Source: the human T2T-CHM13v2.0 reference genome, Homo sapiens
Length of the DNA: 64,000 bases
Assembly (NCBI RefSeq): GCF_009914755.1
Contig: NC_060943.1
Reading direction: 5' to 3' (one strand)
Part shown: one piece after another, positions 2,410 through 4,017 of the stretch
Layout of the letters: each line of letters opens with the position of its first letter
Numbering within the stretch: the first letter of the stretch is position 1
Program-made: the position numbers and the translations under genes
Notes under the pieces: model-generated
The model's database searches: none
What the model saw: only the letters and a program-made list of their open reading frames with translations
Told to the model about the DNA's origin: nothing

Positions 2410-4017
2410 CATCACTCAGACTACTTGGAGCCTTGGCCTGAATTTCAGGTTTCGTAGGAGGAATCATTTTCTCCTCCTCTCGCATCGGCTCTGGTTCGGC
2501 TTTCTTAACCTGGAGGGGACATCCGCTGCTGACTAGCCAGGCCTTCAGGTGGTCTATGTACTCTCGCCCAAACAAAGTGGAGTCTTCGAAGTTTGGAAAC
2601 GCAGCAGGTGAGGGAGCTATATCTTGCAGGCCGACAGCTTCTAAGATTTTCTCCTGCCGGAAAGAAGAGGCCAAGGAAAATGTCTGTCCCAAAAGGGCCA
2701 AAGACTTCCGGCAGAGAGAGTTGGTGGTTTCTAGGGCAAGAGCCAAGTCCAGGGGGTTACTGAGGGTCTTCATCTTGACACTTAGCTCGTAGGCATTGCA
2801 GGCCATAAGCAAAGGTGTGACACTCTTCAGAAGCCGGTCTTGAAGTCTCATTATGTACTTGTCAAAAGGCTTTATGATTTCAAAAAAGCAATTTTTGGTC
2901 TTCACAGCACCTTTGTCTAAAAGCATGTTTAAAAACTCATTATCAACTCTGGGTGTTTTCAAAGCAGAGTGCTTTAAAAATTTGATAGTAAAAAAGCAAA
3001 AATCTCTGTGCTCTGGTTTTAAGGAACATTTGAATGAGGCAAGCATTTTAGCACAGGTTTCTGTTTCAAGTTCAAAGAGAGTCTGGAAAAGTTGGGAAAA
3101 TTTAATATCATCTTTTATGGTGTGGAATCCTGCCCATTTGATTATTTCTATCCCAAATCTTGAAAAAACATCAGACTTATCTATGATGTCAAAGCTCATC
3201 TTTCTTCTGGGGAGCCGAAGATTCTTCAGATCCAGCCCCAGAGGGATCTTCTGAATGGGGAACTGGATATCTTCTGTCCCTGGGTTTGTCCCCAGGGTCA
3301 CATCAGGACTTGGAGTGTTTTTCTGGATTTGGTTAGTGCCCTGAGTTTTGGGAGTAATACGATTCACGGTGGGTATTTTTTTTGTGCTCACATTTCTCAA
3401 TGTGACAAGTTTCCCAACACCCCCCTTAGCTGTGAGCAGGCCCTGAGTCTCCCCCTTTCCTAGGAGGGAACCTTCCTGGTCAACGATGTTTAGAGCTCGA
3501 CCTCTGGCCTGGACTTGACTGCTGCCCCTAAGCACAGAGTCAGCCTCCCCAGGATGGTCCACGTCATAATCCCGACTCTCCTTCTCCAAACACTCTTTCT
3601 CAATCAGCCTGGAAGATCCAAAGTCCCCCAAAACTGCAGAGGGACCAAAACTATACTCCTGTGACCAAGAGGACTCTTGAGAAACTGGATGGCCAAAGTC
3701 TTGTTCCCAAGAACCACGGAGCGCAAATTTCCAGTCCTGAGAACGGAAATGCCCCAATTTCCGGTGGCCAATGACCTGGTCCCGAGAATCAGAGTGAGAA
3801 AATTCCAGATCCCGGCCACATTCTTTGCGAAAGTAGCTGTCATCACTGATGGAAGGGTTGCTTGATCTGAAGGAAGGCCCTGGAAATACGTCACTTCTCA
3901 GGCCTTCTCTTCCGGCATCTCTAGAGTGAGCTACAGATCCACTGAGGGAGTATCTGCCATCGCTGTGGACGTCATCATACATCTCTGCTCTGGATCTTGG
4001 GACTGCCCTTAAGAGAT
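2410..4017 (-). CDS. SUGP2: SUGP2 (SURP and G-patch domain protein 2, SFRS14) coding exon 3, 1608 nt, phase 1-1
   Basis: Long stop-free ORF (DLLRAVPRSRAEMYDDVHSDGRY...KAPSSLSD) recognised as SUGP2. Polypyrimidine tract plus CAG acceptor at 4018-4020; GTAAGG donor at 2409-2404. Frame continues from exon 2 (CAA G|AT). The gene continues beyond the window start. Confidence 0.95.

Follow-up and report, generated by a model that had tools for sequence, protein, structure and literature searches.

The window analysed here, a stretch of 64,000 nucleotides from the human T2T-CHM13v2.0 reference genome (contig NC_060943.1), carries on its minus strand exon 3 of SUGP2, and it is the 3' half of this internal coding exon that concerns us; all coordinates are positions in the window. 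The exon is bounded by a canonical AG acceptor at 4019-4018, preceded by a polypyrimidine tract, and by a GT donor (GTAAG) at 2409-2408, and its minus-strand frame, open from 4015 to 2411, includes the peptides ALKTPRVDNEFLNML, FDKYIMRLQDRLLKSVTPL, SLALLGQTFSLASSFRQEKIL and STLFGREYIDHLK. An earlier note on this DNA had read the 3' half as a helical block akin to the LAP2alpha-specific domain of TMPO and as a co-opted Gag-like protein of a DIRS-type retrotransposon. The four peptides that it quoted, the exon length of 1608 nucleotides, a PRVD motif at 2953-2942, a TLFG motif at 2578-2567 and the span of 129 residues between them are all found in the sequence, the P of PRVD and the G of TLFG lying 128 positions apart, i.e. 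129 residues inclusive. We consider it likely that this part of the exon (approximately 3172-2525) encodes an all-helical domain of about 215 residues that is homologous to the product of the first open reading frame (ORF1) of a tyrosine-recombinase element. Two queries were used, the 535-residue translation of the exon and its 267-residue C-terminal part, to which the residue numbers of the domain refer.

Relatives of SUGP2 were collected by a word-index search, which gave 8, and by an exhaustive search of the protein library, which gave 53. Residues 281-500 of the exon are aligned by BLASTP in 43-52 of the 53 relatives, and the first 260 residues in about 2-8. The first 270 or so residues (3206-4017, minus strand) are probably a disordered linker. 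In an alignment of 52 sequences Q124, P133, N207 and L213 are invariant, and conservation is at least 90% at W26, F60, P87, D90, L134, E142, G175, Q176, R185, L190, P206 and G215; judged by their columns in this alignment, PRVD and TLFG are among the most constrained positions. Relatives of SUGP2 down to 29% identity retain the same architecture. On the plus strand opposite the domain there are two stop-free stretches, at 2442-2792 (116 residues) and 2844-3254 (136 residues), which are most likely a by-product of codon usage in the sense frame.

A first AlphaFold2 model of the domain, built from 8 sequences, had a predicted local distance difference test score (pLDDT) of 61.3 and gave only generic helical structure matches. 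The model built from 52 sequences has a pLDDT of 89.2, a predicted template modelling (TM) score of 0.80 and nine helices (from H15-27 to H216-229), two of which form a long antiparallel pair (Table 1); the helical character proposed for the 3' half of the exon is seen in both models. Comparison with the structure of the LAP2alpha C-terminal domain had been named beforehand as a check, and when the deeper model was run with Foldseek against 350,542 PDB chains, both chains of 2V0X, described in the PDB as 'the dimerization domain of LAP2alpha', ranked first and second (2v0x_A and 2v0x_B, E 0.021 and 0.024, probability 1.00), with alignments of 195-199 columns and a TM score of 0.47 by target; the third-ranked row had an E-value of 0.67 and a probability of 0.15. 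Two aligners both put 2V0X first in the PDB, covering 158-167 residues as against at most 100 for the rows that follow. The 52-sequence alignment used for modelling holds no LAP2alpha or ZNF451 sequence. Identity between the SUGP2 model and 2V0X is 11-16% in the structural alignments, the ends of which fit, by arithmetic, PRVD on PKVD and TLFG on TLFG to within a few residues. As modelled, the SUGP2 domain has a LAP2alpha-like predicted fold. The viral structures of BFVD contained no match (best E 0.2, probability at most 0.38), and none of the structure lists contained a capsid-type Gag, which is no evidence against one.

Table 1. Features of SUGP2 exon 3 in the window; residues are those of the 267-residue query
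Feature	Position	Strand	Residues	Basis
SUGP2 exon 3, internal coding, 1608 nt	2410..4017	-		annotation, open frame, AG acceptor and GT donor
N-terminal exon part, about 270 residues	3206..4017	-		poorly conserved; no family match (BLASTP, Pfam)
Conserved all-helical domain	2525..3172	-	14-229	model, 2V0X match, hidden Markov model matches, conservation
PRVD motif, aligned to PKVD of LAP2alpha	2942..2953	-	87-90	P87 and D90 nearly invariant
Long helix 1, with invariant Q124 and P133	2771..2896	-	106-147	AlphaFold2 model, 52-sequence alignment
Long helix 2, with G175-Q176 and R185	2636..2755	-	153-192	AlphaFold2 model, alignment
TLFG motif, aligned to TLFG of LAP2alpha and SLFG of ZNF451	2567..2578	-	212-215	L213 invariant, G215 nearly invariant

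The link to a mobile element comes from a search that is separate from the structure comparison. A profile of 8 SUGP2 domains, run with hmmsearch against a library of 1,835,955,588 representative proteins, returned 54 matches at E <= 0.001. Among the 13 weakest is a separate family (P0059-P0062, E 3.5e-7 to 3.3e-5), of which P0061 (958 residues, E 1.4e-6) carries the domain in residues 255-379 and, towards its C-terminus, a match to Phage_integrase (E 0.0041, below the Pfam cut-off). A word-index search yielded 17 P0061-like proteins, 16 of them from the toad Pelobates cultripes; the toad copies are mostly 94-100% identical, with two at 84-85%, and are spread over at least seven contigs of chromosome size. 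The source labels read 'Tyrosine recombinase' for 13 of the 17 and Ty3 Gag-Pol fragment for one. On sequence grounds the P. cultripes family (P0061, P0096-P0110) is a young multicopy element, because near-identical copies occur on many contigs under recombinase names. A gene model from Pelodytes ibericus (P0111), NLRP3-like, includes a segment 97% identical to the element protein and is probably a case of an element insertion swallowed by a gene model.

When SUGP2 orthologues were aligned by hhalign with P0059-P0062, the probability was 99 and the E-value 7e-18 over 129 columns, which establishes, at the level of sequence profiles, the homology of the SUGP2 domain and the element protein, whose own C-terminal block reads as intermediate between those of SUGP2 and LAP2alpha. 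A profile search was among the checks proposed in the earlier note, and its outcome favours the proposal: it leads from the domain to a Gag-position protein encoded by a multicopy tyrosine-recombinase element. The domains of LAP2alpha and ZNF451 are described as derived from the ORF1 of DIRS1-like elements, the first ORF of which is reported to be homologous to the LAP2alpha domain in turtles, a lizard and the coelacanth (PMC4495291), and a LAP2alpha domain is predicted in ORF1 of all the DIRS-like families described from Xenopus (bioRxiv 10.1101/2021.08.05.455354).

Among host genes the domain occurs in two settings. The strong hmmsearch matches are SUGP2-type proteins; scanning of 23 of them found Surp in 19, G-patch in 13 and either in 20, the other three being short proteins of 414-437 residues; divergent SUGP2-type proteins (P0046-P0049, E 1e-34 to 1e-43, 29-35% identity) have Surp in four of four cases and G-patch in two of four. 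A search of the human genome with the domain returned a single copy, the only other rows (E 4.6 and 7.8) being at chance level, and P0046 returned the SUGP2 exon alone under a stricter filter. With no second human copy at E <= 10, SUGP1 therefore lacks the domain at single-sequence sensitivity, as had been anticipated. In a second host-gene family (P0050, P0051, P0054-P0058) the domain is at the C-terminus. Pfam finds an RRM in P0051, P0056, P0057 and P0058 and a marginal one in P0055 (E 0.013-0.015), and found no domain in P0050 and P0054; the RRM of P0051, the sole one tested, is closest to those of RBM20 (E 8e-16), ZNF638 (6.5e-14) and Matrin-3 (1.9e-11). Searched against the human genome, P0054 matched the SUGP2 exon alone (E 1.6e-12), and no RRM-family copy of the domain was found there. 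In a tree of the domain the SUGP2 clade (38 rows, support 100/99) stands apart from the RRM-family and element sequences; the tree, which is unrooted, gives no further resolution, and SUGP2 and the RRM family may go back to one capture or to two.

The direct comparison with LAP2alpha and ZNF451 gives a fainter signal. The Pfam LAP2alpha model PF11560 (curated cut-off 25 bits), scanned against the human genome, identified the TMPO alpha exon on chromosome 12 (E 8.6e-152, 513 bits) and the ZNF451 exon on chromosome 6 (E 4.7e-6, 36.5 bits). A weak row on chromosome 4 (41072547-41072642, minus strand; E 6.65, 16.8 bits), with one internal stop, is at chance level. The LAP2alpha motifs named in the earlier note do exist in the TMPO alpha exon, in the order given: ILSVPKVDDEILGFI, RRYLWL, GGTLFGGEVCKVIK. 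This order is shared with SUGP2, and P to G is 147 residues inclusive in LAP2alpha as against 129 in SUGP2. The ZNF451 exon carries RRQAWL and SLFG blocks and has no PxVD motif.

Profile-profile alignment by hhalign of the 49-sequence superfamily with a LAP2alpha and ZNF451 profile scored 29 (P 0.0022, probability 12-13%) and paired columns 80-227 with 134-299, placing PRVD on PKVD and TLFG on TLFG in the register of the earlier note. That score was reached by none of 60 column shuffles (maximum 19.5) and none of 60 ten-column block shuffles (maximum 27.6), and the reversed template scored 16.6. Scores of at least 4 bits in hmmsearch were obtained by 12 of 32 real sequences, 8 of 1920 shuffled ones and none of 32 reversed ones, a modest signal, since the real sequences, 32 in number, fall essentially into two families. 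A word-index search with LAP2alpha found 33 proteins, all of them mammalian LAP2alpha and 32 with PF11560, and no element ORF1s, so that the LAP2alpha profile is shallow. The likeness of SUGP2 to LAP2alpha rises above chance in profile and structure tests only, and not in pairwise BLASTP.

The ESM Atlas, a language-model resource, adds neighbours that are leads, not tests. For the SUGP2 domain PF11560 is found in 14, 11 and 25% of the members of the three best named clusters, which are chordate 'hypothetical proteins' (score 0.92, 187 of 256 features shared); among the 10 best family-bearing matches, 8 share a family or clan with the top one. For the element protein P0060 the corresponding figures are 21, 14 and 22% of cluster members, one of the clusters being mostly molluscan. 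The low-confidence Atlas structure model of P0060 has arthropod clusters as its closest neighbours; the label of one, PF30815, may stand for a more recent model of element ORF1 proteins.

Several results weigh against an origin from such an element protein and have to be set beside those above. The Pfam check proposed by the earlier note came out negative: no family, PF11560 included, matches the 535-residue exon or its 267-residue part at E <= 10, the PF11560 scan of the whole human genome has no match at the SUGP2 locus, and the same model finds none of 10 bridging proteins at E <= 10. A phmmer search of PDB sequences returned no LAP2alpha, only DIS3 at E 0.85-0.89; BLASTP against LAP2alpha gave at best E 0.12, covering only the 14-residue PRVD/PKVD block, and against ZNF451 at best a non-significant E 1.8. 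Considering the Pfam, phmmer and BLASTP tests alone, the likeness of SUGP2 to LAP2alpha could be chance. In the profile tests the HH probability of SUGP2 against LAP2alpha is just 0.6-13%, the best block shuffle comes close to the real score, and one of the 1920 shuffled decoys, at 12.0 bits, exceeds the best real sequence, at 11.6 bits. The shallow 8-sequence model had 2V0X listed in neither structure search, and both AlphaFold2 and ESMFold2 were possibly trained on 2V0X, so that fold and dimer could partly be memory. On the side of the element, Phage_integrase is matched weakly in four of seven models (E 0.0011-0.0046, 17-19 bits, cut-off 27.1), and Pfam reverse transcriptase (RVT) and RNase H families are found in none of the seven gene models and not in an extra 183-residue piece of P0106, a search that covered the gene models and not the element DNA. 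By eye this P0106 piece and the tail of P0059 look like the beginning of a DIRS pol ORF, a likeness to which we give no weight as evidence.

This last result bears on the nature of the donor. It could have been a tyrosine-recombinase DNA transposon of the Crypton type, or some other non-DIRS element with a LAP2alpha-like accessory protein: in the gene models the Gag-like part is fused straight to the recombinase, Pfam detects neither reverse transcriptase nor RNase H in them, and the recombinases of DIRS and Crypton elements are described as related (PMC5753468). Against this, one of the copies is named a Ty3 Gag-Pol fragment at source, parts of an element are often missing from the gene models of repeats, and the LAP2alpha-like ORF1s in print belong, in the published descriptions, to DIRS1-like elements with reverse transcriptase, RNase H and recombinase (PMC4495291; bioRxiv 10.1101/2021.08.05.455354). 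Weighing these points, we regard a non-DIRS donor as quite unlikely. With no reverse transcriptase found in the gene models of the related element, the term 'DIRS-type' rests on the recombinase, the LAP2alpha-like fold and the literature. The DIRS-type co-option proposed for SUGP2 is to this extent largely supported, by the homology to the element protein and by the fold, its weak points being the negative Pfam result, the faint profile-profile link to LAP2alpha and the negative search for a reverse transcriptase.

The transfer could also have run the other way, an old host domain of SUGP2 and RBM20/Matrin-3-like proteins having been taken up by the toad element. The branch of the element clade is long (2.09) and lies beside the host RRM-family domains in a tree that cannot be rooted, a single element lineage with four representatives was recovered, and its gene models have no reverse transcriptase, all of which would agree with such an uptake. 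It is nevertheless very unlikely in our view, given that the DIRS1-like elements of turtles, lizard, coelacanth and Xenopus are reported to have, as a rule, a LAP2alpha-type first ORF, that the Atlas neighbours bearing PF11560 include a mollusc-dominated cluster, and that the domain of the host copies is a single intronless block, with one copy in human. Finally, that an unrelated cellular bundle of helical hairpins acquired by chance or convergence two short motifs and a generic long-helix arrangement like that of LAP2alpha is hard to credit, since the family named in advance tops the PDB with two aligners over far more residues than any following row, a separate hidden Markov model search leads from the domain to a multicopy element that bears a recombinase, the language-model neighbours carry PF11560, and the weak alignments are all collinear in one register.

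We infer that the transfer ran from element to host and, with less confidence than we attach to the homology and the element origin, that the donor was a DIRS-like retroelement. In the resulting scheme the ORF1 superfamily that gave rise to the C-terminal LAP2alpha domain of TMPO and to the alpha-type exon of ZNF451 would also have supplied an intronless block to the ancestor of SUGP2, though not to SUGP1. The captured domain would then have been retained under constraint alongside the SURP and G-patch modules, and the donor lineage would have been too divergent for the Pfam LAP2alpha model. SUGP2 is on this reckoning probably the third, and an older, human gene with this mobile-element module.

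Residues 459-693 of LAP2alpha are reported to dimerise, and dimerisation to be required for chromatin association (PMC11417337). An ESMFold2 homodimer of SUGP2 residues 10-235, for which the SUGP2 alignment was not used, scored 0.77 (runs 0.78, 0.77 and 0.74), and the best of three controls scored 0.00; contact agreement between the runs was at least 49% and partner pLDDT at least 59. In calibration the dimer mark was passed by 21 of 30 solved same-chain pairs and none of 23 single chains from microbes, and in eukaryotes by 17 of 29 pairs (7 of 16 from animals), by one of the seven pairs without an older solved relative, and by none of 30 single chains. The predicted interface runs along the long helices with two-fold symmetry (123:123, 160:160, 163:163, 167:167 and 174:174) and takes in the PRVD region (87-93), Q124, G175 and the LFG block (211-215). 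The model supports self-binding of SUGP2 without showing it and may reflect memory of 2V0X; the oligomerisation module suggested by the earlier note draws on this homodimer model only.

SUGP2 has been described as chromatin-associated, as binding long introns and repressing splicing independently of DHX15, and as co-precipitating MATR3, PTBP1 and heterogeneous nuclear ribonucleoproteins (hnRNPs) (bioRxiv 10.64898/2026.06.30.735655; PMC8558236). If two chains pair through their long antiparallel helices, a symmetric dimer would result, as in LAP2alpha, and the bivalent SUGP2 would bind more strongly, in a chromatin-associated and helicase-independent manner, to long introns and hnRNP-type partners. 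Dimerisation and its role are put forward with less confidence still than the DIRS-type donor. One may go further and suppose that SUGP2 has retained the self-assembly on RNA of a Gag-position protein, that it coats long introns rich in long interspersed nuclear elements during transcription and shields them from the spliceosome, and that the module has been joined repeatedly to intron-binding splicing repressors (SUGP2 and RRM proteins like RBM20, Matrin-3 and ZNF638), a proposal that we think unlikely. If true, the domain would be a recurrent building block of intron-binding repressors and an old domestication, as opposed to the mammal-specific LAP2alpha and ZNF451.

No paper that pairs SUGP2 with LAP2alpha or DIRS, or SFRS14 with LAP2, was found in a collection of some 8.1 million articles in PMC and 0.36 million preprints, to which subscription-only articles and databases such as InterPro do not belong. 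What is new here is a probable third host gene with a LAP2alpha-like domain derived from an element ORF1, one that fails Pfam membership and shares the predicted fold. A recent study describes SUGP2 as an outlier among G-patch proteins (bioRxiv 10.64898/2026.06.30.735655). The uncharacterised half of the protein would gain a predicted fold and a testable function, dimerisation, for which the predicted interface residues are direct targets for mutagenesis.

Of the known systems, LAP2alpha is the closest. Like SUGP2 it has P-[KR]-V-D followed by T-L-F-G within a single large exon, it is the top structural match, and it is described as a C-terminal dimer; for SUGP2 a symmetric homodimer through the long helices is predicted. 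Unlike SUGP2 it is recognised by PF11560 and has the wider motif spacing (147 vs 129), and the TMPO alpha exon is reported to be 3'-terminal, alternative, mammal-specific and provided with its own poly(A) signal (PMC4495291), whereas the exon of SUGP2 is an internal one with SURP and G-patch exons downstream of it. The ZNF451 isoform shares with SUGP2 a captured ORF1-type domain and an R-x-x-x-L ... LFG block (6.7 bits, per-comparison E 1.8e-4); it differs in passing PF11560, in having no PxVD and in being, as reported, eutherian-specific and alternative (PMC4495291). With the ORF1 of DIRS1-like elements the SUGP2 domain is connected through significant profile similarity to an amphibian element protein that has a recombinase part, although SUGP2 itself is single-copy, fixed, without recombinase or reverse transcriptase, and fused to splicing-factor modules. 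SUGP1 is described as having the same tandem SURP and G-patch architecture (bioRxiv 10.64898/2026.06.30.735655), yet is without the domain at the sensitivity given above. A 2018 review names LAP2alpha and ZNF451 as the sole DIRS traces in the human genome (PMC5753468); if our reading is true, SUGP2 would be a third, and one of a different kind, its exon being internal, constitutive and joined to SURP and G-patch modules.

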